Shown here one piece after another: positions 1,806-46,100 of a stretch of DNA of 64,000 nucleotides. The position numbers and the translations under genes were made by a program. The notes under the pieces were generated by a model. That model made no database searches. It was not told the DNA's origin and saw only the letters and a list, made by a program, of their open reading frames with translations. Positions within the stretch are counted from its first letter, which is position 1, and each line of letters opens with the position of its first letter. Origin of the DNA: Escherichia phage vB_EcoP_ShWW44; sequence record PQ900156.1. The stretch is one strand, 5' to 3'.

Positions 1806-2102
1806 ATGCGTACAATATGTAACCGTTATAACTCACAGAAGTTGATTGTTACGTTACAACCGTGGGGCAGCAAGATGTCACTAAATGCTCGTTGGCAAGT
1901 ATCTGTAAAAGATGAAAATGGTCAGTGTTATGACCACTTCTTTGCAGCTAAACCTACTCGTAAACAAATTAGTAAACTTCACAAAGTACGTAAGCATTAC
2001 TTACTTAGTAAATGCTACGAATGTGGCAAAAGGATAGAACTGGGTAAAGAATTTACCTTAGATGACTTAAACTATGCACACGCTGACTGCCTAAAAGGAT
2101 AA
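1806..2102 (+). CDS. small Cys/His-containing (zinc-binding-like) protein (98 aa)
   Basis: ORF with GAAGGAG RBS; CYECGK ... HADC motif. Confidence 0.5.
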   Translation: MRTICNRYNSQKLIVTLQPWGSKMSLNARWQVSVKDENGQCYDHFFAAKPTRKQISKLHKVRKHYLLSKCYECGKRIELGKEFTLDDLNYAHADCLKG

Positions 2103-2106
2103 GACT

Positions 2107-2325
2107 ATGTTGGACTTCATTGCGTTTGTAATACTCTGCTATGTGCTATATCGCCTACGTGGTTACATCCTCAATGGAGCCAAGTGGATAATTACTAAGC
2201 TGGTACTTATCTGTAAGTTACCAGTTGTATTAGTTAAGTGTTTGTTTGCTTCCATCATAGCTAAAGAGGTGCGTAAACAACTATGGGCTAAGGAAGCAGA
2301 AGACTATGTTAAGAGGAACCAGTGA
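2107..2325 (+). CDS. small hydrophobic membrane protein (72 aa)
   Basis: ORF; hydrophobic N-terminal half. Confidence 0.45.
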   Translation: MLDFIAFVILCYVLYRLRGYILNGAKWIITKLVLICKLPVVLVKCLFASIIAKEVRKQLWAKEAEDYVKRNQ

Positions 2326-2471
2326 TGAATTATTCAGAATTGTGGCTTAAGTTTTATGAAGATTGGCTTAGTGCTGTATCTGGTAGACGCACCGAAGGTG
2401 ATATGAACCGGGCAAAGGAATTTGCAGATAATTGTATAAAGTCACTGAAGGAACCAGATGATATTCACTAA
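2325..2471 (+). CDS. small ORF (48 aa), ATGA stop/start overlap with upstream gene
   Basis: Below the track length cutoff; read manually; coupling-type overlap. Confidence 0.3.
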   Translation: MNYSELWLKFYEDWLSAVSGRRTEGDMNRAKEFADNCIKSLKEPDDIH

Positions 2472-2634
2472 CATAGAAGATGCCATTGAAGAGTGTATCT
2501 TTCGTAGGACCACTGGTGTACAGAAAAGACACTACGGTGTTGTACAACAAGGCCATCAAATGGTTGTAAGAATTGTACGTAACAGTAAACCTTCACGTAT
2601 TATGTGGAGTACTAAATCATGCGTAAGTCATTAA
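2458..2634 (+). CDS. small ORF (58 aa)
   Basis: Manual read; AAGGA RBS upstream of ATG; fills otherwise ORF-free gap. Confidence 0.3.
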   Translation: MIFTNIEDAIEECIFRRTTGVQKRHYGVVQQGHQMVVRIVRNSKPSRIMWSTKSCVSH

Positions 2635-2750
2635 TCATGGGAACCAGAGAAGACGTACAAAAGATGAAAGAACGTCTGGCTGCAAAGAAACAGTCATCTG
2701 AACCAGTACGTAAGATTGTTACCTTCAATCATCCAATATTAGGAAACTAA
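2619..2750 (+). CDS. small ORF (43 aa)
   Basis: Manual read; fills gap before 2753 gene. Confidence 0.25.
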   Translation: MRKSLIMGTREDVQKMKERLAAKKQSSEPVRKIVTFNHPILGN

Positions 2751-2752
2751 TC

Positions 2753-2965
2753 ATGTATTTCGTAATCTTTGTAGCACTAATGTATCTGAACGTTTGGCTC
2801 ACTAATGTAGCAGGTAATATTACTAAAACTTTGTCTACTAATAATGATGCCAGAGGTTTTGCAATATTTGGTTATGTTACTGCATTAACCAAGGGATTGA
2901 GCATAGGCTATGGCTTATGGTTCATATACTATTGTGTAGTCAATTTCCCATATTCATTTATATGA
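2753..2965 (+). CDS. small membrane protein (70 aa)
   Basis: ORF with AGGAA RBS; two hydrophobic segments. Confidence 0.5.
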   Translation: MYFVIFVALMYLNVWLTNVAGNITKTLSTNNDARGFAIFGYVTALTKGLSIGYGLWFIYYCVVNFPYSFI

Positions 2966-3025
2966 ACTGGCCTATTTCAATAGCCATGTTTGTACTGTTA
3001 ACCTACAGTGCATTAGTAGAACTGG

Positions 3026-3057
3026 GAGTCCTCCATTAGGAGGGCTTCTATTTTTTA
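3026..3057 (+). terminator. rho-independent terminator
   Basis: CCTCC-ATTA-GGAGG stem-loop followed by TATTTTTTATT. Confidence 0.55.
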
Positions 3058-3099
3058 TTCTTGAATAGTTAGATATGTATTTAAACAGGAGAAATTATC

Positions 3100-3414
3100 T
3101 TGAATGAAATTGTTTGTATACTTCCTCATTCAGCTAAGATAGCTGACCGGAATATACGTATCCACTTACCATTTCCACTAAGCAATCCATTCACTCGTAA
3201 TGAAAGAACCACAGTAGAGGATGTAGAGGTAGCTTATGAAGCTTACCTTCGTAATCGTCTTATTAGTGGTGACAAACTAATTACAGCAGAGATGGAAAGG
3301 ATTGCATCCTTTGTAACAGATAGTACAGGTAAGCCTGTTGGCCTAATTGGTACTGAATCTGATGTTAACGTTATTCGTAAAATACTAATGGAGGCACTCG
3401 GTGAACAATCTTAG
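3100..3414 (+). CDS. hypothetical protein (104 aa), TTG start
   Basis: ORF; AGGAG 8 nt upstream of TTG. Confidence 0.45.
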   Translation: MNEIVCILPHSAKIADRNIRIHLPFPLSNPFTRNERTTVEDVEVAYEAYLRNRLISGDKLITAEMERIASFVTDSTGKPVGLIGTESDVNVIRKILMEALGEQS

Positions 3415-3646
3415 TGATGTCATCATAGATAAAACAATATTAGTGAATCCCAAAGGGTATGCCTGGTTCATGCTAAAGCATACCCGTAAGGTATATGTTA
3501 GAAAAGTATATATACGTAACTTTGGTAAGTTATCTTACAGAGAAGTACGTATTAATAATGAGATGTACTTTCTAGATGAGTCAGTGATTATCAAATCAAC
3601 CGAAGACAGAAAAGCCCCTTACTTTAACTATTACGGATTCAAGTAA
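3401..3646 (+). CDS. hypothetical protein (81 aa)
   Basis: ORF overlapping upstream gene by 14 nt. Confidence 0.4.
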   Translation: MNNLSDVIIDKTILVNPKGYAWFMLKHTRKVYVRKVYIRNFGKLSYREVRINNEMYFLDESVIIKSTEDRKAPYFNYYGFK

Positions 3647-3647
3647 A

Positions 3648-3869
3648 ATGCTGTTCAGCACTAATTATGGTATTTGCCCGATTTGCAATAAAGGAAGAGG
3701 AGTTGCTAATCATAAGAAGTGTAGTCGTATTCTACAGAAACAACGGAACCAGAAAGAATGGGCTAAGGTATTGGAAAACCAACACAAAGATGAGTTCAAG
3801 AAGACAGCTGTTAAGGCATCTACTCAGCTCATTCGTCGTACTAACTTCATAGAAGGCTACCAGAAATGA
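3648..3869 (+). CDS. small Cys-containing basic protein (73 aa)
   Basis: ORF; CPICNKG ... KKCSR motif. Confidence 0.45.
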   Translation: MLFSTNYGICPICNKGRGVANHKKCSRILQKQRNQKEWAKVLENQHKDEFKKTAVKASTQLIRRTNFIEGYQK

Positions 3870-4222
3870 AACTAATCATAGCCGGTGGAAGAGACTTCGT
3901 AGATACCAATCGTATGATTGAGGAACTACAGAAGTTAGTAAATTCAGGGAATATACCTGAATGCCCAGAATTAGTATGTGGTATGGCTCGCGGAGCAGAT
4001 ATATTAGCATTCCGTCTATGGAAATCTGCAAATATGCAGATACATGTATTCCCTGCTGAATGGGATACCTATGGCAAGTCTGCTGGATTCCGTAGGAATA
4101 AAGAAATGGGTGAATTTGCAGATGCTGCTGTATGTTTCTGGGATGGTAATTCCAAAGGAACCAAGCACATGATTGATATCATGAATAAGCTAAATAAACC
4201 TGTATACGTCGTGAGGTATTAG
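3866..4222 (+). CDS. SLOG/DUF2493-like Rossmann-fold nucleotide-binding protein (118 aa)
   Basis: Motifs IIAGGRDF, GMARGADILA, EWDTYGKSAGFRRN, WDGNSKGT resemble the SLOG (YspA/DprA/LOG-like) family as recalled; ATGA overlap with upstream ORF. Confidence 0.55.
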   Translation: MKLIIAGGRDFVDTNRMIEELQKLVNSGNIPECPELVCGMARGADILAFRLWKSANMQIHVFPAEWDTYGKSAGFRRNKEMGEFADAAVCFWDGNSKGTKHMIDIMNKLNKPVYVVRY

Positions 4223-33720: not shown

Positions 33721-34352
33721 CAACAACCGAACCAGTGTGCAGGAATACTCTCCCCTGTGCATTGGTTCAACTGAAGCTAATATGAACAAATTTACTATTC
33801 ACTGGCTCAATGGAAAGGTTAGTTCTTTCATGGGTGAAGAACCCGTTGAAGGAAAGAAAGTATTTCACATTGAATCGGAAGGATGCAAAATCTTAGTACC
33901 GTATGCTTGGTATAAAGAAGGTGAAGTAGAAGCATTAAAAAAGAGTAGTTAATATCGTGAAGGGTTCTGTTAGAATCCTTTGAGATAGGAACTCCTATCA
34001 TAACCTTTCTTAACTTAATCCTTGCCGTATGGCACTGACGCTAGGGTTTATGCCCATCCGTCAGGTAGACTATTTTAAGAATGGGTTATCACAGAAAATG
34101 TAAAGCAACATTCGGGTTAATCAATGGCCTCTCTCTATAGGGGCCATTTCTGAATCTTAGGCTATATCCCAAAGGTTAGTATCTTTGGGATAAGGCTTCA
34201 GATCCCTTATAAACTAACGCTCATGTTGAGCATAACACTAACCCCTACTGGCGGGTAATTCGATACGCTAGTCCTACAGCATCGAATTGTTAGGTCTTAC
34301 ATGCAACATAGGGTATAAAGGGAGGATTCGTCCCCTCCCTCCTATTATAATG

Positions 34353-34422
34353 GTCGGGGTAGCACGTAGGCATGTGCAGAAGGTCGCTACTTCTCTCGCT
34401 GGTTCGAATCCAGCCCCTGACC
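34353..34422 (+). tRNA. tRNA-like element 1 (non-canonical; isotype not assignable by hand)
   Basis: T-arm GCTGG-TTCGAAT-CCAGC; 7-bp acceptor pairing GTCGGGG/CCCTGAC with one G-U; D-stem GCAC/GTGC; short variable region; anticodon loop ambiguous. Confidence 0.35.
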
Positions 34423-34878
34423 TACTGACATCCTATCAATGAGTACATTAGGCTAACGTGCGGAGGTTTACACTGTAGCCGGTGTAGGTGGAGAAGACGG
34501 CAGGGTAGCTACCTGTGCTTAGTGTACTCTTTGATAGTTTTCGTAAGCGATTATGCGGTTTTTTAGAAATGAACCAATAACATAAATGCAAACGATGATG
34601 TTGTTCTGATGGCGGCGTAATAGCCTGTAAGTCAGCAAGGTCTTCCTATTCCTTGTAAATAAATTCGGCGCAGTGGCCCGCTGTAATTAATAATGGGCAC
34701 ACAACAGGTAAGAGCATTGGGTAATGTCAGCCTTGGTTCGAAGTCGAAAGACATGCGGTAATACCCAGCCAAAGTTCCAGTGCTCTTTCCGTTGTGGAAA
34801 TGCAAGCACAACAAGTCCAGACGATATCTGAGTGACTTTAAAAACAGATGGAGCCAGGTGGAATCCCTGGCAATCTAT

Positions 34879-34944
34879 TCCGGTGTAGGTACTAGTGTCG
34901 TGCACGGCATGAGTGTTCTGGTTCGAGTCCAGACGCCGGAACCA
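34879..34944 (+). tRNA. tRNA-like element 2 (T-arm + acceptor stem + encoded CCA; body too short)
   Basis: T-arm TCTGG-TTCGAGT-CCAGA; acceptor TCCGGTG/CGCCGGA; discriminator A then CCA; only about 63 nt before CCA. Confidence 0.3.
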
Positions 34945-34946
34945 AT

Positions 34947-35070
34947 TACCAGTTGCACGAGATGGCTTGGCATGTTCAAGTTTGGACTAAGTGTGACACC
35001 GCTAGATTGGAGGGCTGCTGCGGTAAGCTATAGACTCCAACCGGGGGTTCGAATCCCTCACTGGTAACCA
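34947..35070 (+). tRNA. tRNA-like element 3 (T-arm + acceptor + CCA, about 124 nt, possibly with insertion)
   Basis: T-arm GGGGG-TTCGAAT-CCCTC; acceptor TACCAGT/ACTGGTA perfect 7 bp; CCA encoded; starts 2 nt after element 2. Confidence 0.25.
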
Positions 35071-35172
35071 ATTCAAAGTAGCATTGCACTAATCCATCCC
35101 GGAGTTCAAAGACCAAACATGGAGCAGTGCTACTTTGAATTAGAAGAATTAAGGTGGGTCTGGTGAAGTAGA

Positions 35173-35265
35173 TAGGGTTCGATTCCCTCCGGTAGAGTAA
35201 TCTACTAGCGTGCTTGGTGCATGAATAAGACTTAATACTGGTGGTTCGATTCCATCCCCCACTAC
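35173..35265 (+). ncRNA. two further tRNA T-arm-like motifs (GGGTTCGATTCCC and GGTTCGATTCC, the latter followed by CCCCACT-A-CCA) without an identifiable 5' acceptor partner
   Basis: Read directly; spacing 67 nt, too close for two full tRNAs. Confidence 0.2.
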
Positions 35266-35794
35266 CAATTTGAGGTGTAACAGTTAAATCCAGTTGCCGG
35301 AAGTGCTATTCTAGATACGCTGCCAATGTGTGAACGGTAAGGCTGTACAGGACTCGGACTCCCACCTCAAACCAAAGTCGCCAGGTACTTATGGCAAACG
35401 GGTAGTAACGAACTAGTCATTCGTCAAACGCCCAACCTATTACGAGTCAGCAAGAACGCCTTCACTTAAACTTAAACAATATGAAAGCTTAACGCAGATA
35501 ATATGTAGGGGTATGTAAGGATTGCGAAGAAGGAGCCAGTTAAAGCCTGGCATGACTCACCTATTAATAGAGAACATAGTCCTGATTGCATTGCACTCTA
35601 AAGACAATGCCGGTGAGACAGTCCGGCACTCTAATTATTGTAAACATACCCACTGACGAGTGGGTATGAGTATGAGCAGACTATAATGCTCAAGTACAGT
35701 TATCTATTATCGGACTATCAATCCTGTTTGCTGGTACAAGCACCGGTGGTAATAGTTAACTGGCCTAGTCTCGTTAGCTGCGTTAAAGCTACTG

Positions 35795-35820
35795 AGTCCC
35801 TCTTCGGAGGAACTTTTTTA
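35795..35820 (+). terminator. rho-independent terminator (AGTCCCTC-TTCG-GAGGAACT + T-run)
   Basis: Read directly; ends the ORF-free region before the next gene. Confidence 0.55.
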
Positions 35821-35841
35821 TTTGAAAGTAGGAGAAATACT

Positions 35842-36117
35842 ATGGCTAAATATCGTAAAAAACCTGTTGAGATTGAAGCTTTTCAATGGGACGGTAGTCT
35901 TAATCTGAACAAAGAACCAACTTGGATAGTAGATGCTCTTCATAATGGGGTAGTCTGGTTCTCTGGGAAGGATAATAAATTATGTATCAGAACTCTGGAG
36001 GGTATCTTAACTGCTTCCCCCAATGACTATATTATCCAAGGTATACATGGGGAGCTATATCCGTGTAAACCAGATATATTCCTGGAAACCTATATCAAAT
36101 CAACAACCGTAAGCTGA
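35842..36117 (+). CDS. hypothetical protein (91 aa)
   Basis: ATG with strong AGGAG SD directly after terminator; track ORF start 35686 rejected. Confidence 0.5.
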   Translation: MAKYRKKPVEIEAFQWDGSLNLNKEPTWIVDALHNGVVWFSGKDNKLCIRTLEGILTASPNDYIIQGIHGELYPCKPDIFLETYIKSTTVS

Positions 36118-43100: not shown

Positions 43101-46100
43101 CGGCAGGTTTCAATTTACCTTCCAGAGCTTTAGTCAGCTCATCCGACATAACTTCACGGGACATTTTATGAACTTTGATACCCAATGCCTGAGCCAGTCC
43201 AAGCTGGAAGTCAGAGAAGTCTTGACTGTTTTCATTACTTAAGTCGATGGTAGAGAAAGTTGGTAGGATTGCTTCACGTACCAGCTTAGCTGATTGTGGG
43301 TTGTTCTTACCAAGCATCTGCATACGACCTACACGGGTCATGTTGTAGCCGTAGTGAATAGGTGTAGTGCCAATGTCTTCTCTCTGTTCCTTAATCTGAT
43401 TGATAACACCAAACAATGGAATCTTTGCATGGACTACGGACAGGTTCTTACCTTCCAGAGATTTAGCAGTATTCACATTCAGCAATTCTGGGGTAAGAGC
43501 ACCAGCACCCATCAGTTCCAGAATGTTGTCACGACCCATTGCTTCATAGAAGTTAACCATAGGCATATGTACACGGAACTCTGTAGCCTGTTCTGCCTTA
43601 AGGGCAGCTTTCTGTTCCGGGGTATTCTTAACAGCCGGGTTACGTAACTGAGTTTGAGCCACAGAAGGGATATCATCACCCAGGTACAGTTTCTCTTCTG
43701 GTTCTAAAAGGACAGCTTCCTCAATAGCAGTAGGGAATTTGTTAATGGCATCGTTATCATCTAACTTCTCAATGGTATACAGACCAACAGTCTTATTAGA
43801 TTCTGGGTCAATCTCAGACACATCCAGCATAGACTCTTTAACTTCACCCATCTCAATGAGAGAAGACAGAATCTCTGTAGCCATTGCCATTGGGATACCC
43901 TTGGTATAACCCAGAGGTGCATTAGGATTACGATTAAGTCCCCAGTAAGATTCAATCTTTTGAGCCAATGAGTTAGTAGCTTCAACCAGAGTCTGAGCAT
44001 TCTCGAAGTCAGCCAGAATACCTTCAGGTAACAGGGATGCTTCTACACCAGTAATAGCAGCTACGTCTTTCATGTCTTTAATGGCAGCATTCTGTGTAGC
44101 AGTTAATCGCCATTGCAGACCAGCAAGTACAGCAGTCTCTAACAACTGGTCATTGAACTTAAAGGTGTCACCATCTTTCTCTACGATGTTAAGTAACTTA
44201 CCACCTACCCAACGGTTGGCCTCAGTACCTTCTGCAAAACGTTTACCAACGTTCTTGTTAGAAAGGAACTTAGCAAGACGGTCAGACAGAGTAGTCTTCA
44301 GAGTTTCACCAAAATCAAACAAGTCCTGATAACGCTTAATCACATCACTTGTGAGAGCGTTATTTTCTTTTTGAGTAAATGCTTCAAAGCGAGCAGCAGA
44401 AGACAGTGCTTTCTTAACATCAGTCAAAGGAGACACAGAACCAATGGTACGAGACTTAGGTTCTTCTGGCAGAGAAAATGCTTTAAGGAACTGGTTCGGT
44501 GTCTTGTCATTGTTATAGACAGGGAACACTGTTTCCATTTCCGATAGAGGTTTACCACCAACAGTATAGTCTGCTTTCAGTTGAGCCAGTGATACTTCTT
44601 CTTTCTCAACGTTATTGGTATTAAGCCCAGATGTATCTACACCAATCTGAATCAGTGCATTGTTTGCTTCTACGAATGATTGAACAGTATTGAATTGTTC
44701 AGCAGTTAGCTTCTGATTATCAAACAATTGCAGAGATACGAACGGTTGCTCACTACCTTTATAGAAAGTAGAACGTACAGCACCAGTATCCAGAGACATG
44801 TCACGATAACCATCATGACCAAATACGTCAGACAGACTGATATGGTCGCCATTGGAACCAACAACAGTACCATCAGCGAATAGCCATGGACTATCTCTAC
44901 GGTCACCATACTTATTAAGAGTATCTTGTGAAATAGTATTCTCTTTCACATAAGAATCTCTTTCAGATTCAGTAGGCTGTTCAACGATATCCTGTTTTTC
45001 AGACTGGTTCTCAGGTTCTTTTACAGTCTGTGGTTTAGACTCTTTAATAGTAGGTTCTGTTTTAACAGCTTCACTAACAGAGGGTTTAGTCTGTACAGTA
45101 GGGGTAACTGGTTCCTGTTTCGTAACAGGAGTTTCATCAACCTGATTCACTGGTTCATTAGTCTGTTGGGATTGAGCAGCATCAAGATTGCCCTGACGGA
45201 ACTCTTTAACTACCTGGGCAGCAGGTTTGTCCAGACGTGAATCCAATGGGGTAACTTTCACATGAGAAACATTAAGCTCCGGGTAAGCCGTAGCAAGTGC
45301 GTTAGCAATATCAGCTACGGTTTTGGCCTCCAGTCCTACTTGCTGGGCAAACTTAACAGACTTGGTATCATACGGATTGACACCGAGGCCAGTACGACTA
45401 CGTACCCATTCACGCGAGGGAGTAAGAGCCTGATAATGGACAGACTTATTCTTATCCGCATTCCCAGAAATCAGATGCTCATTCAACGCTCCGACCTTAT
45501 TCTGCATGTGCTGGGCGAACTTCATAAAGTCGTCGAGATAAGCGGAGGCCAAATCGAAGTTACCAGAGTTGTACGCAGAACGAATGCGTTTAGCATGTTG
45601 CAACGCAGAGTACTGGCCTTCATTAGAACGAGATTCGTCGGTTTTAATCTGTTTACTAACAATGTCTTGAGGACGTAAGCCTAGTTCTTCTGCTTTAGCG
45701 TCAAATTCTCGTGCTCCTTGCAATAGAGCAGCAGCAGATTGCAGGGCAGCACGCTGACGATTCCCCAGTGTAATCTTACCTTCACTTGCATGTTTCAGAA
45801 CCATGTTCACTGAATCTGCATCCAGTACTTCTGGAGACATATCAGCAGCCATAGCAATGTTGTTTGCCTGGGCTTGGTTAGCTTCTTCGGTAGCTTTCAG
45901 TTTACCTGCTTCAGCCTGTTCCTGAATCATGGAATGGATGGCACGGAATGCACGGAGTACCTTCGGTGTATTCTGTACATTAGCCATCAGACCAGAGAAC
46001 TGGTCAACGATATTAGCAGCAGGAGAACCCTGTTCCAGATTAGCCAGAGCACCCGGGTCACGGTTAATGAAGCTATCCATAGACATAATGTTGTCATACA

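Follow-up and report, generated by a model that had tools for sequence, protein, structure and literature searches.

A tmRNA-like tag RNA and anticodon-less tRNA-like RNAs in a non-coding RNA island of N4-like phages

Positions 33953-35841 of a 64-kb window of Escherichia phage vB_EcoP_ShWW44 (PQ900156.1; the window is the whole stretch of DNA that was analysed) form an RNA island of N4-like phages, a plus-strand cluster at the end of the early/middle genes that does not code for protein. It includes a segment of about 165 nt, here called the tag RNA, which, judged by its frame, fold and model alignments, derives from the middle of a tmRNA, and two conserved tRNA-like RNAs (elements 2 and 3) that have neither an anticodon arm nor a D stem; as a whole the block is pieced together from modules of structured RNA that are non-canonical. 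The block is most likely a processed small-RNA operon whose tag RNA acts in, or interferes with, host trans-translation.

The original prediction that this block has no credible open reading frame is borne out. The longest plus-strand frames are 95, 51, 44 and 35 aa, the 95-aa frame (34780-35067) begins with GTG, and the next real CDS downstream starts at the ATG at 35842. The flanking proteins give no RNA-related clue in Pfam, the single match being an N4 gp49-family domain. At least five T-arm motifs had also been predicted, and the T-loop motif GGTTCGANTCC indeed occurs five times in the window (34401, 34920, 35046, 35176 and 35243), always on the plus strand and always inside the block, compared with 0.05 expected; none of 100 shuffled sequences reached five. 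We assign these motifs to the following elements.

34352-34423, plus strand: element 1, an atypical tRNA (ARAGORN tRNA-Ala(cgc); MFE 8/5 cloverleaf, z -3.2)
34878-34944, plus strand: element 2, a 67-nt tRNA-like RNA with encoded ACCA (covariation)
34947-35070, plus strand: element 3, a 124-nt tRNA-like RNA with encoded ACCA (covariation)
35146-35267, plus strand: elements 4 and 5, with T-loop motifs at 35176 and 35243 (z -0.36 and -0.25)

Acceptor stems, GTTCRANYC T loops, 3' CCA ends and a tRNA-operon position are all found in the block. ARAGORN, run over the whole window, reports a single gene, 'tRNA-Ala cgc' at 34352-34423, which accounts for one T-loop motif only. Rfam gives no match at gathering score anywhere in the 64 kb; RF00005 (tRNA) has no match in the block, and the Rfam tRNA models none at the other four motifs, even at E<=10. 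Ordinary tRNAs therefore do not account for every T arm. The description of the block as structure-dense holds for many segments, with MFE z-scores of -2.4 to -7.0 (33977-34215, element 1, 34433-34537, 34700-34796, element 2, 35071-35140 and 35641-35790), and fails for others, where z is about 0 (35146-35268, 35266-35380 and 35372-35640).

The tag RNA had not been noticed in the original prediction, nor had the sharing of modules with unrelated phage families or the tRNA genes at the same position in relatives. Its features are as follows.

34534-34698, plus strand: tmRNA-like tag RNA core, about 165 nt, without a tRNA-like domain (sub-threshold Rfam matches, homologues, covariation)
34537-34543, plus strand: invariant 5' motif GUUUUCG, also present in SSEM1, phiEa2809 and the 'P1' record
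34582-34587, plus strand: frame-setting upstream sequence AUAAAU
34588-34620, plus strand: tag frame GCA AAC GAT GAT GTT GTT CTG ATG GCG GCG TAA (ANDDVVLMAA*)
34621-34623, plus strand: second stop codon, TAG
34606-34635, plus strand: helix-5-like hairpin around the stop codon, CUGA..GGC / GCC..UCAG (covariation, helices 1-2)
34636-34668, plus strand: pseudoknot A, stem CAAGG/CCUUG, loop CCNAUU with downstream AAUUCGG (helices 3-4)
34669-34698, plus strand: pseudoknot B, stem CGCAGU/GCUGUA, loop GCCC with downstream GGGC (helices 5-6)

The tag RNA resembles tmRNA (RF00023, and the permuted two-piece forms RF04321, RF01849 and RF01850) in having a start-less frame that runs from a resume codon, GCA, to a stop, with A at position -4 and U at -5. 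The A is invariant among the tag RNAs and the U is at least 90% conserved (C in Sf11); they correspond to A86 and U85, the main frame determinants of E. coli tmRNA, in which C in place of U85 is tolerated (PMC2481249). The 13 distinct tag variants, from at least eight phage lineages, are all exactly 10 codons long and follow the pattern AN[DE]...[AV]A plus stop, matching the length and the AND...AA form of the E. coli tag ANDENYALAA. An in-frame stop lies 3-11 codons upstream of the tag in 13 of 14 variants, with no ATG, GTG or TTG between. The tag frame has a pN/pS ratio of 0.43, compared with 1.81 and 1.01 for the two others, and no internal stop interrupts it in any of 22 distinct sequences. 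An ordinary small ORF was rejected as an explanation of the tag, there being no start codon and no Shine-Dalgarno sequence, and the overlapping +1-frame MQTMMLF is not conserved.

As in tmRNA, the stop lies inside a helix-5-like hairpin and H-type pseudoknots follow, although there are two of these where most tmRNAs have three after the tag. Across the six helices 90.8% of cells are paired, compared with 34-42% in slid controls, 11 of 26 pairs have changed on both sides, and the covariation score of 0.264 (shuffled mean 0.124) was reached by none of 500 shuffles. Pairing of the outer 4 bp of the hairpin is complete (100%), five sequences having exchanged A-U for G-C, and the helices of pseudoknot A are 99% and 89% paired, with six pairs changed on both sides. 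The second stem of pseudoknot B has been rebuilt in other lineages, as GCGGGAG/CUCCCGC, GCCCAC/GUGGGC, UCCCUGA/UCAGGGA or AUCC/GGAU. None of the Rfam tmRNA models reaches its gathering threshold: tmRNA_permuted (RF04321) scores 31 bits (E 7.6e-4) against 47, beta_tmRNA (RF01850) 16.7 against 84 and RF00023 12.4 against 47. Over the tag RNA set tmRNA_permuted scores 29-33 bits, and the alpha, beta and standard tmRNA models align at model positions 56-295 only.

What is missing is the rest of the molecule. Whereas tmRNA is about 360 nt, the tag RNA is less than half that, is encoded by phages and prophages, and lacks the 5' and 3' acceptor strands, the G3:U70 pair, the T arm, the CCA and the P2 helix. 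Neither the window nor any of 45 homologous contexts yields a tmRNA with ARAGORN, and no acceptor stem, T arm or CCA was found physically linked to the tag RNA. A scan for post-T-arm sequences that pair with the 5' region returned four, about five being expected, which is the chance rate, and the prophage copies contain no canonical T-loop motif (GTTCRANTC) from -300 to +500 nt. About 300 nt downstream in L008/L107, but unlinked to the tag core, there is a T-arm-like hairpin whose 9-nt loop is non-canonical and after which comes N-CCA. The alanine identity pair G3:U70 occurs in none of the tRNA-like elements: as read from the sequence, element 1 has U-A at 3:70, elements 2 and 3 have C-G, element 5 has G-C within its imperfect acceptor, and the lambda-type downstream elements have U3-A70.

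Several candidates for the missing domain were considered and rejected. The wV8 element downstream of the tag (CGGGGCG.../CGCCUCG-A-CCA, with G3:U70) is not a general partner; the same slot in sister Felixounaviruses is an ordinary tRNA-Arg(UCU), and the wV8 element too has a UCU anticodon loop. A 'complete one-piece tmRNA' in L046, in which GAGUGAU would pair with GUCACUC after a T arm, was discounted because such matches appear at the chance rate. A permuted tmRNA with the long hairpin upstream of the tag as P2 around a tRNA-like domain is also rejected: the interiors are hypervariable and lack a T arm-acceptor-CCA order, and Sf11, wV8 and L046 have promoters where this hairpin would be. A TYMV-like pseudoknotted acceptor (pseudoknot B followed by ACCA) is not supported, as ACCA is present in few lineages and Felixounavirus has a further hairpin after it.

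The tag RNA core is present in 690 of the 50,697 phage records, or some 1.4% of the phage genomes sequenced, among them N4-like, T1-like and Jersey-like phages, Kuttervirus and other Ackermannviridae, Felixounavirus, Chaseviridae and lambdoid phages, and including such well-studied models as CBA120-type, Felix O1-type and T1-type phages; there are two alleles among close relatives. It also occurs in 137 of 5,426 E. coli genomes, lying inside the Q-holin late leader in the three examined; the late leader of lambdoid prophages of pathogenic E. coli is among its locations. Only one of about 185,000 species-representative genomes has it, and it is absent from bacterial chromosomes proper. RNA annotation of it is missing in every record inspected, and the literature on tag peptides, phage 'tmRNA-like' RNAs, N4-like non-coding regions and CBA120 small RNAs yielded nothing relevant. 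The family has gone unnoticed because search tools are anchored on the tRNA-like domain. A 2025 census of 97,179 tmRNA sequences comprises standard, permuted, intron and 'no-CDS' forms and no template-only form; all described tmRNA forms include a tRNA-like domain. The CDS-less tmRNA of mycobacteriophage DS6A and some plastids consists of the tRNA-like domain only (PMC11915505); the DS6A RNA is likewise a phage-encoded partial tmRNA, but the tag RNA represents the other half, being a template to which no tRNA-like domain belongs.

We consider it probable that the island is a set of tRNA-like and tag RNAs processed as an operon, with the tag RNA read via trans-translation. Transcription of the block would give a single precursor, to be processed into stable small RNAs in the manner of a tRNA operon, by RNase P at the acceptor stems, RNase E at CCA/AUU junctions and possibly RNase III in the long stems. 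Ribosomes would read the tag RNA through trans-translation, and nascent chains of stalled ribosomes would receive a phage-specified degron. Ribosome entry would have to be provided in trans because the tag RNA has no tRNA-like domain of its own; putative providers are the host SmpB-tmRNA and a co-encoded tRNA-like RNA. We know of no mechanism by which a stalled ribosome could be loaded with a template that lacks a tRNA-like domain. The full form of this proposal, a working 'headless' tmRNA in which the phage supplies the template half and host SmpB-tmRNA or a co-encoded anticodon-less RNA loads it, is possible and offered tentatively. Stalled proteins in infected or induced cells would then be tagged with, for example, ANDDVVLMAA and not the host ANDENYALAA, and this would be both a new split form of trans-translation and a new viral reprogramming of host protein quality control. 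If the tag RNA is decoded, the halves of tmRNA can work on separate molecules and phages rewrite the host degradation tag.

Alternatively, the tag RNA may be a decoy or inhibitor of host trans-translation and not a template, acting either through its 5' GUUUUCG as an antisense to the host ssrA tag codons or through its body by titrating SmpB, S1 or RNase R. We regard this as rather unlikely, although a decoy would also account for the missing tRNA-like domain, and there is a mirror-image precedent in the DS6A RNA, which is reported to inhibit E. coli tmRNA (PMC11915505). The segment UAGUUUUCGU is exactly complementary to nt 97-106 of E. coli ssrA (codons D-E-N-Y), the queried 151-nt 5' segment of ssrA is identical in the 5,426 genomes, and in Sf11, wV8 and L046, where sigma-70-like promoters immediately precede it, GUUUUCG is located at the RNA's predicted 5' end. 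However, the complementarity, compared as the longest Watson-Crick run (full-length RNAduplex gave meaningless end-to-end duplexes), is only marginally unusual, 10 nt being reached by 7-16 of 300 shuffles; the run is 8 nt in Kuttervirus and L036 and is not the best match in L046. RNAalifold pairs GUUUUCG with codons 2-4 of the tag RNA itself, and the match to host ssrA could be a by-product, since both tags begin with GCAAACGA. Nor would a decoy require that the frame stay at 10 codons, that substitutions be biased towards synonymous ones or that stop codons be preserved. If the tag RNA is nonetheless a decoy, it is a widespread anti-ribosome-rescue RNA.

Turning to the tRNA-like elements, element 2 consists of an 8-bp acceptor stem, a single-stranded UAGGUACUA in place of a D stem, a central hairpin whose GUGCAC and 4-nt loop (UGCA) are invariant, and then the T arm and an encoded ACCA; 97.3% of cells are paired (29-49% in slid controls) and five pairs have changed on both sides. 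Its topology, within about 65 nt, is that of the tRNA-like domain of tmRNA, with an acceptor stem, unpaired D region containing GG, helix replacing the anticodon arm, T arm and ACCA, but it has C3-G70 and not G3:U70, and no sequence homology is detected. Element 3 combines a 7-bp acceptor stem and a T arm with four internal hairpins and an encoded ACCA, with 99.6% of cells paired (27-49% in slid controls) and five both-side changes, three of them in the acceptor stem; all seven variants are 124 nt long. The non-tRNA small RNAs rnaC (species 1, 139 nt) and rnaD (species 2, 119 nt), at the end of the phage T4 tRNA cluster, offer a parallel: like element 3, rnaC is closed by an acceptor-like stem and contains additional internal hairpins besides a canonical T arm, but its acceptor stem is imperfect and CCA is not encoded. 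A blastn comparison at word size 7 matched rnaC/rnaD over an 11-13-nt T-loop segment only. The T4 annotation assigns no function to either RNA.

In element 1 the acceptor stem is 8 bp long, the T stem 5 bp and the D stem 6 bp with a 4-nt loop; the variable region is 3 nt, the anticodon loop reads GUCGCUA (CGC) and CCA is not encoded. The 8/5 geometry and U37 of this element depart from the 7/5 geometry and purine 37 of a canonical tRNA. The best Rfam model is tRNA-Sec at 30.2 bits (gathering score 47). It shares with tRNA-Sec and other 8/5-type tRNAs (RF01852) the 13-bp acceptor/T helix and the 6-bp D stem with its 4-nt loop, but tRNA-Sec has a long variable arm and a UCA anticodon. Element 5 ends in ACCA and pairs at 5 of 7 acceptor positions; the region of elements 4 and 5 has a match of about 79% in the T4-like phages VR25, PEi20/26 and CkP1, and these two elements are possibly degenerate tRNA-like remnants. 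The hand-drawn sizes of the original prediction were near those measured for element 2 (about 63 nt then) and element 3 (about 124 nt), which are separated by 2 nt and do not directly abut. Where it gave three 7-bp acceptor pairings, the stems are 8 bp in elements 1 and 2, 7 bp in element 3 and imperfect in element 5, and CCA is encoded by three elements and not two (2, 3 and 5, the last ending at 35267).

It could be argued that the block consists of relics without function, tRNA genes and a tmRNA fragment that have decayed and are drifting where the sequence is dispensable, and the absence of a significant fold and the imperfect acceptor in elements 4 and 5, the coming and going of modules among close relatives and the sub-threshold value of every Rfam score agree with this. 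However, compensatory changes preserve the helices of the tag RNA and elements 2 and 3, the tag frame is kept in 13 variants from unrelated phage families, element 3 keeps its length, and the N4 segments are 96-99% identical. For the tag RNA and elements 2 and 3 the relic reading is largely refuted, and for the block as a whole it is improbable; the earlier suggestion of decayed pseudo-tRNAs may fit elements 4 and 5 but, given the covariation, does not fit elements 2 and 3.

Very improbable, too, is that the elements are ordinary decoding tRNAs whose introns or insertions are missed by prediction programs. In its favour are the acceptor stems, T arms and CCA, the location of element 2 in tRNA slots, and the labels tRNA-Undet, OTHER and Xle that annotators have given to parts of the block. 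Against this, neither ARAGORN, with introns allowed, nor the Rfam tRNA models call elements 2 and 3, the loop of element 2 is an invariant 4 nt, the candidate 7-nt loop of element 3 has neither U33 nor a purine at 37 and is variable in its first two nucleotides, and nothing resembling a plausible splice or bulge-helix-bulge structure was seen. The 'tRNAs with insertions' once proposed do not describe elements 2 and 3, because both lack an anticodon loop; of the options then listed, a longer structured RNA of unknown function comes closest.

Relatives have ordinary tRNA genes at this position, and none was found in this Gamaleyavirus block. The N4 gap contains genes for four tRNAs (Asn, Ser, Thr and Pro), and element 2 lies between the last two; in cp20 its neighbours, at a distance of 5-6 nt, are tRNA-Tyr and tRNA-Ser; six tRNA genes occupy this position in KP8 (PMC6950046); and L033 has nine directly upstream of the tag RNA. 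The block is similar to the tRNA clusters of N4, KP8, cp20 and Felixounavirus in position, strand, spacing, consensus T loops and encoded CCA, but elements 2 and 3 have no anticodon arm and element 1 is of the 8/5 type. Anticodon-less tRNA-like RNAs kept where ordinary tRNAs are lost point to tRNA mimicry and a non-decoding function. N4 has element 2 and no tag RNA, the segments it shares with the window being 96-99% identical, and lambdoid prophages and T1-like phages have the tag RNA without elements 2 or 3; the phage tRNA-like RNAs are therefore not obligatory partners of the tag RNA. The other modules of the block are listed here.

33949-33976, plus strand: sigma-70-like promoter (TTAATA, 16-nt spacer, TAGAAT, TG upstream), candidate start of the RNA operon
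33977-34215, plus strand: structured 5' region, a multi-branch fold at 33977-34120 and strong hairpins at 34123-34148 and 34154-34203 (z -3.07, -5.69)
34433-34537, plus strand: long closing stem (~19 bp) around a three-way interior (z -2.76)
34700-34812, plus strand: lambda-type late-leader hairpin, CACAACAGGUAAGAGCA ... UGCUCUUUCCGUUGUG at 34700-34796, variable interior (lambda alignment; z -3.3)
34813-34877, plus strand: two-hairpin element of ~60 nt, fold weakly significant (z -1.9)
35071-35140, plus strand: near-perfect 17-bp hairpin directly 3' of the element 3 CCA (CCA/AUU...; z -6.98)
35269-35371, plus strand: long closing stem UUGAGGUGU/CCCACCUCAA around ~85 nt, directly 3' of the element 5 CCA
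35569-35573, plus strand: cassette junction, the exact insertion point of tRNA cassettes in relatives
35641-35790, plus strand: strongly structured 3' segment of three hairpin domains (z -3.97)
35796-35819, plus strand: terminator-like hairpin CCUC-UUCG-GAGG then UUUUUU (read by eye), candidate end of the RNA operon

The promoter call is weak evidence, because it is a consensus match only and the scan finds three such sites compared with 4.4 expected in shuffles. The terminator-like hairpin lies 22 nt upstream of the next CDS; its fold is not significant and the consensus scan does not list it. The stretch 34183-34353, overlapping the structured 5' region, has about 72% identity to Kuravirus-like phages. 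In the N4-like phages compared (the window, UE-M6, L019, L032 and L033) the stem of 34433-34537 is kept around a hypervariable interior, and its 3' strand adjoins GUUUUCG. The closing stems of 34700-34796 are those of the lambda late-leader RNA (tR' to gene S; lambda ~44,745-44,860), although the hairpin interiors are unrelated; E. coli prophages carry the tag RNA inserted in this leader, and we know of no described function for the lambda hairpin. A second CACAAC (34807-34812) could pair with the same GUUGUG strand. The element at 34813-34877 is common to N4, unrelated siphoviruses, temperate phages and Kuravirus-like phages, and that at 35269-35371 is 98.9% identical to N4 and present also in Enterobacter, Pectobacterium and S16-like phages. 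For a hammerhead-like motif noted in the insert of L017, Rfam gave no confirmation at E<=0.05.

Modules are gained and lost between close relatives: element 1 is an optional cassette found in about a dozen related phages, and at 35569-35573 ECBP1 carries a tRNA-Ile(AAU) and UE-M6 a 'tRNA-OTHER' and a tRNA-Ile, neither of which is in the window. That the conserved modules act as DNA, as recombination or boundary sequences or the ends of mobile cassettes, would fit their shuffling among unrelated phages at 72-98% identity, the CACAAC-type repeats flanking their junctions and the clean, cassette-like indels, but is hardly credible given strand-specific RNA-type covariation with G-U pairs, pseudoknots unexpected for DNA sites, T loops all on one strand and a tag frame selected at the peptide level. 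Short non-coding RNA modules are thus exchanged among unrelated phage families like gene cassettes, and their mobility is compatible with a function as RNA.

The block at 33953-35841 matches the corresponding coordinates of Escherichia phage St11Ph5 with 97.5% identity, and the window is therefore from a Gamaleyavirus (G7C-like, N4 group, Schitoviridae). Small + strand genes without assigned function lie on either side; upstream are an SSB gene and a gene named as a RuvC-type resolvase in the record of one relative, and downstream are genes of the N4 gp48/gp49 type. At the equivalent place N4 has a 1.5-kb gap without annotation, and the gp47-gp48 interval of its RefSeq record (NC_008720) carries zero annotated features; ARAGORN identifies four ordinary tRNAs there (locus L085, 1649-2328; Asn-GTT, Ser-TGA, Thr-TGT and Pro-TGG), and element 2 of the window is present too. 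The equivalent gap of cp20 contains tRNA-Pro, Tyr, Ser and Gln, the locus L033 has nine tRNAs, and the window has no ordinary tRNA. A tRNA-Ile(AAU) cassette of ECBP1 and UE-M6, with its insertion point at exactly window 35569/35573, is missing from the window; at this junction (35569-35573) the cassette consists of tRNA-Ile with or without a 'tRNA-OTHER' and is cleanly present or absent between close relatives. The block is a mosaic in which separate pieces of 60-190 nt match separate, unrelated phage groups at 72-98% identity, and database labels for its parts are inconsistent (tRNA-Ala, Thr, Cys, Ile, Xle, OTHER, Pseudo or Undet). It is a tRNA island whose contents are non-canonical modules, and we are confident that these form an operon-like island of selected, non-canonical small RNAs.

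The original prediction of an ORF-free, structured block with tRNA-like modules is confirmed as a whole, and its interpretation (tRNAs with insertions, decayed pseudo-tRNAs or a longer structured RNA) is supported in part. The longest + strand ORF in the block is 95 aa with a GTG start, and all five copies of the T-loop motif GGTTCGANTCC in the 64-kb window lie on the + strand and within the block (chance expectation 0.05 copies). High structural density is found for many segments (MFE z-scores of -2.4 to -7.0) and not for the rest. ARAGORN reports a single gene in the whole window, 34352-34423, as 'tRNA-Ala(cgc)'; Rfam gives zero matches at gathering score, and its tRNA models give no match to the remaining four T arms at a cutoff as loose as E<=10. 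The components are as follows.

33953-35841, + strand, ORF-free block
34352-34423, + strand, element 1, tRNA-like
34534-34698, + strand, tag RNA (core), about 165 nt
34878-34944, + strand, element 2, tRNA-like, 67 nt
34947-35070, + strand, element 3, tRNA-like, 124 nt
35146-35267, + strand, elements 4 and 5, T-arm-bearing

We are confident in describing the tag RNA as a new and widespread relative of tmRNA that has the template part only. In sensitive mode Rfam matches 34517-34620 to the permuted tmRNA model at a sub-threshold 31 bits (E 7.6e-4), centred on GCA AAC GAT GAT GTT GTT CTG ATG GCG GCG TAA, which reads ANDDVVLMAA*. Weak tmRNA matches recur in relatives, and in phage wV8 the standard tmRNA model aligns at positions 56-295 only, the part of the model that separates the tRNA-like domain's two halves. 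Several observations speak for decoding of the tag frame. Thirteen distinct tags were identified (ANDDVVLMAA, ANDNVFLAVA, ANDSEVLMAA, ANDNVVLMAA, ANEEAYLMVA, ANEEMYLAVA, ANDDVVLIAA, ANDDVILMAA, ANDNAFLAVA, ANDNEMRAAA, ANDNEFKVAA, ANDDLMMVAA and ANDDLMLMAA), every one with exactly 10 codons, the length of the host ANDENYALAA, and with [AV]A before the stop. An in-frame stop lies 3-11 codons upstream of the tag with no intervening ATG, GTG or TTG in 13 of 14 variants, so the tag frame is not an ordinary ORF. Pooled pN/pS is 0.43 for the tag frame and 1.81 and 1.01 for the other two, both of which contain stops in nearly every sequence; with non-independent pairs, the statistic is descriptive. 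The A at position -4 is invariant and the U at -5 nearly so.

The predicted fold contains a helix-5-like hairpin around the stop codon and two H-type pseudoknots. Across 23 diverse sequences 90.8% of its positions are paired, against 34-42% in six controls with shifted positions; 11 of 26 pairs have changes on both sides, and the covariation score of 0.264 (shuffled mean 0.124) is attained by none of 500 shuffles. Further alleles rebuild the same stems from different sequences.

The core is present in 690 of 50,697 phage records, including N4-like, T1-like, Jersey-like, Kuttervirus, other Ackermannviridae, Felixounavirus, Chaseviridae and lambdoid phages, and none of 60 records sampled across the ranking has an RNA annotation there. 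A pattern scan of IMG/VR yields 77 loci. It is also found in 137 of 5,426 complete E. coli genomes (no feature is annotated under the match in 25 records sampled) and in only one of about 185,000 species-representative bacterial genomes. Three E. coli prophages were examined, and in each the core is located in the late leader, the ~1-kb interval from the Q antiterminator gene to the holin gene. In Sf11, wV8 and the L046 locus a sigma-70-like promoter lies directly upstream of the tag RNA, placing the predicted RNA start a few nt before an invariant GUUUUCG; N4-like and Kuttervirus phages have, immediately next to this motif, a long hairpin whose interior is hypervariable. Among Gamaleyaviruses (loci L001, L002 and L019 compared with the window), at least three alleles are distinguished 3' of the stop codon (window 34621-34698): one like the window and Sf11, one like ECBP1 with a different 3' half, and that of phi G17 and PhAPEC5 with ANEEAYLMVA, a pattern that indicates recombination inside the gene. 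In the Kuttervirus PhaxI (L004) the tag RNA lies inside a 2.3-kb gap without annotation (1854-4187) that also holds T-arm-bearing tRNA-like elements ending in CCCA and long closing-stem modules, and is an RNA island analogous to that of the window.

No tRNA-like domain accompanies the template. ARAGORN found no tmRNA in 45 tag-RNA contexts, and in a systematic scan the 7 nt following a T arm could pair with sequence 5' of the tag in four cases, with about five expected by chance; a candidate acceptor stem in L046 was discarded because the scan's yield is the chance rate. None of the window's tRNA-like elements has G3:U70. N4 has element 2 and lacks the tag RNA, and lambdoid and T1-like phages have the tag RNA and lack both elements 2 and 3; since element 2 and the tag RNA thus occur apart, the core stands as an independent unit, which has to work by itself or together with host factors. 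Directly 3' of the tag RNA in wV8 (L005, 2666-2744) is a tRNA-like gene with the acceptor CGGGGCG/CGCCUCG and the alanine identity set (G3:U70, A73 and CCA); its anticodon loop is UCU (Arg) and its D region is abnormal. An ordinary tRNA-Arg(UCU) fills this slot in sister Felixounavirus loci, and the wV8 gene could be a mis-charging or recoding tRNA.

The tag RNA has the features of the template half of tmRNA and lacks those of the tRNA-like half, and it is not a tmRNA as defined. A 2025 tmRNA census that includes 79 phage sequences recognizes standard, permuted, intron, 'permuted, no CDS' and 'standard, no CDS' forms; the template-only form is absent, and the pipeline was anchored on tRNA-like segments (PMC11915505). 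Full-text literature yielded nothing relevant on the tag peptides or on 'tmRNA-like' with phage. The tag RNA is descended from a tmRNA template and predicted to work like one. The mechanism we tentatively prefer is that it would be decoded by trans-translation with the entry domain supplied in trans. The main rival is a decoy or antisense role, which we consider unlikely. For the antisense version, UAGUUUUCGU (window 34537-34546) is a 10-nt perfect complement of E. coli ssrA nt 97-106, the tag codons D-E-N-Y; this is only marginally unusual (attained by 7-16 of 300 shuffles, about 0.03), in two lineages the complementarity covers just 8 nt, L046 has a better match elsewhere, and RNAalifold pairs the 5' motif with the tag RNA's own codons 2-4. 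Because host and phage tags both begin GCAAACGA, the ssrA match could be a by-product, and the antisense idea is a rival and not a finding.

The sizes originally predicted for elements 2 (about 63 nt) and 3 (about 124 nt) were essentially right, and three elements, not two, encode CCA. Element 1 folds as an 8/5 cloverleaf with a 6-bp D stem, a 4-nt D loop, a variable region of 3 nt and the anticodon CGC (z -3.2), lacks G3:U70, and has tRNA-Sec as its top Rfam model (30.2 bits; gathering score 47). About a dozen relatives carry it as an optional cassette, and the copies vary too little to test covariation; other phages precisely lack the segment (34349-34426). Element 2 has an acceptor stem of 8 bp, a T arm and, between them, a central hairpin built around GUGCAC, which is invariant, but neither D stem nor anticodon loop; in eight distinct variants 97.3% is paired (29-49% in controls with shifted positions), with changes on both sides of five pairs. 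It lies between tRNA-Thr and tRNA-Pro in N4 and 5-6 nt from tRNA-Tyr and tRNA-Ser in cp20, and is thus laid out like a tRNA gene. Like the CDS-less tmRNA of DS6A it has the topology of the tmRNA tRNA-like domain, but differs from that domain in lacking G3:U70 and in having no detectable homology to it. Every one of the seven variants of element 3 measures exactly 124 nt; the 7-bp acceptor stem occurs in three versions, each fully Watson-Crick, and pairing over the whole structure is 99.6% (27-49% in the shifted controls); with samples of seven to eight sequences, the covariation tests of elements 2 and 3 are supportive and not conclusive. The architecture and genomic context of element 3 are similar to those of T4 rnaC; its sequence is not. 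Elements 4 and 5 have no significant fold, the acceptor stem of element 5 is imperfect, and both may be degenerate. The 3' ends of elements 2, 3 and 5 all read ...ACCA|AUU, followed directly by element 3 in the first case and by a long hairpin in the other two. In E. coli tRNA processing such a CCA|AUU layout is expected for maturation by RNase P and RNase E, and these enzymes would be predicted to mature all three elements. The retention of elements 1-3 in a phage without ordinary tRNAs argues for tRNA mimicry in a role other than decoding.

Several other structured modules were noted. The lambda late-leader hairpin (CACAAC...GUUGUG) is present at window 34700-34812 and in lambda (NC_001416, ~44,745-44,960; L086); the observation also covers loci L008, L017, L034, L036, L037, L044 and L107-L109. 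A second CACAAC lies 3' of the hairpin, so GUUGUG can pair upstream or downstream, forming one of two helices that exclude each other. The downstream pairing in lambdoid and T1-like phages closes an acceptor-like stem ending N-CC(A/C), with compensatory changes among its versions (UGUGGUG/CGCCACA, UGUGGUG/CACCACA and, in lambda, UGUGCUG/CAGCACA), and in some phages this unit has a canonical D arm and T arm. An insert within this hairpin in a lambdoid prophage (L017), 3' of the tag RNA, resembles a type I hammerhead ribozyme core (GCGCGC-CUGACGAG-UCCAUGAGGGA-CGAAAC-GCAUUAGC-GUC-GCGCG), with no Rfam report at E<=0.05. Two sub-threshold group I intron matches (2821-3048 and 3281-3573; 30-33 bits against a gathering score of 50) lie in the N4-like IMG/VR contig L019, a few kb 5' of its tag RNA. 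In a Kuttervirus ORF-free region (L062, 2223-2436, minus strand of the locus), Rfam matches the gammaproteobacterial sRNA STnc100 above gathering score (48.7 bits against 47), on the same strand as the tag RNA and about 1 kb 3' of it. Finally, a ~60-nt element at window 34813-34877 (GUCCAGACGAUAUCUG...CAGAUGGAGCCAGGUGGAAUCCCUGGC) is common to N4, Kuravirus-like podoviruses, Klebsiella siphoviruses and temperate phages, Shigella phage DS8 and Salmonella phage 9NA at 85-98% identity across carriers, and its PhaxI version has a large insertion in the first loop.
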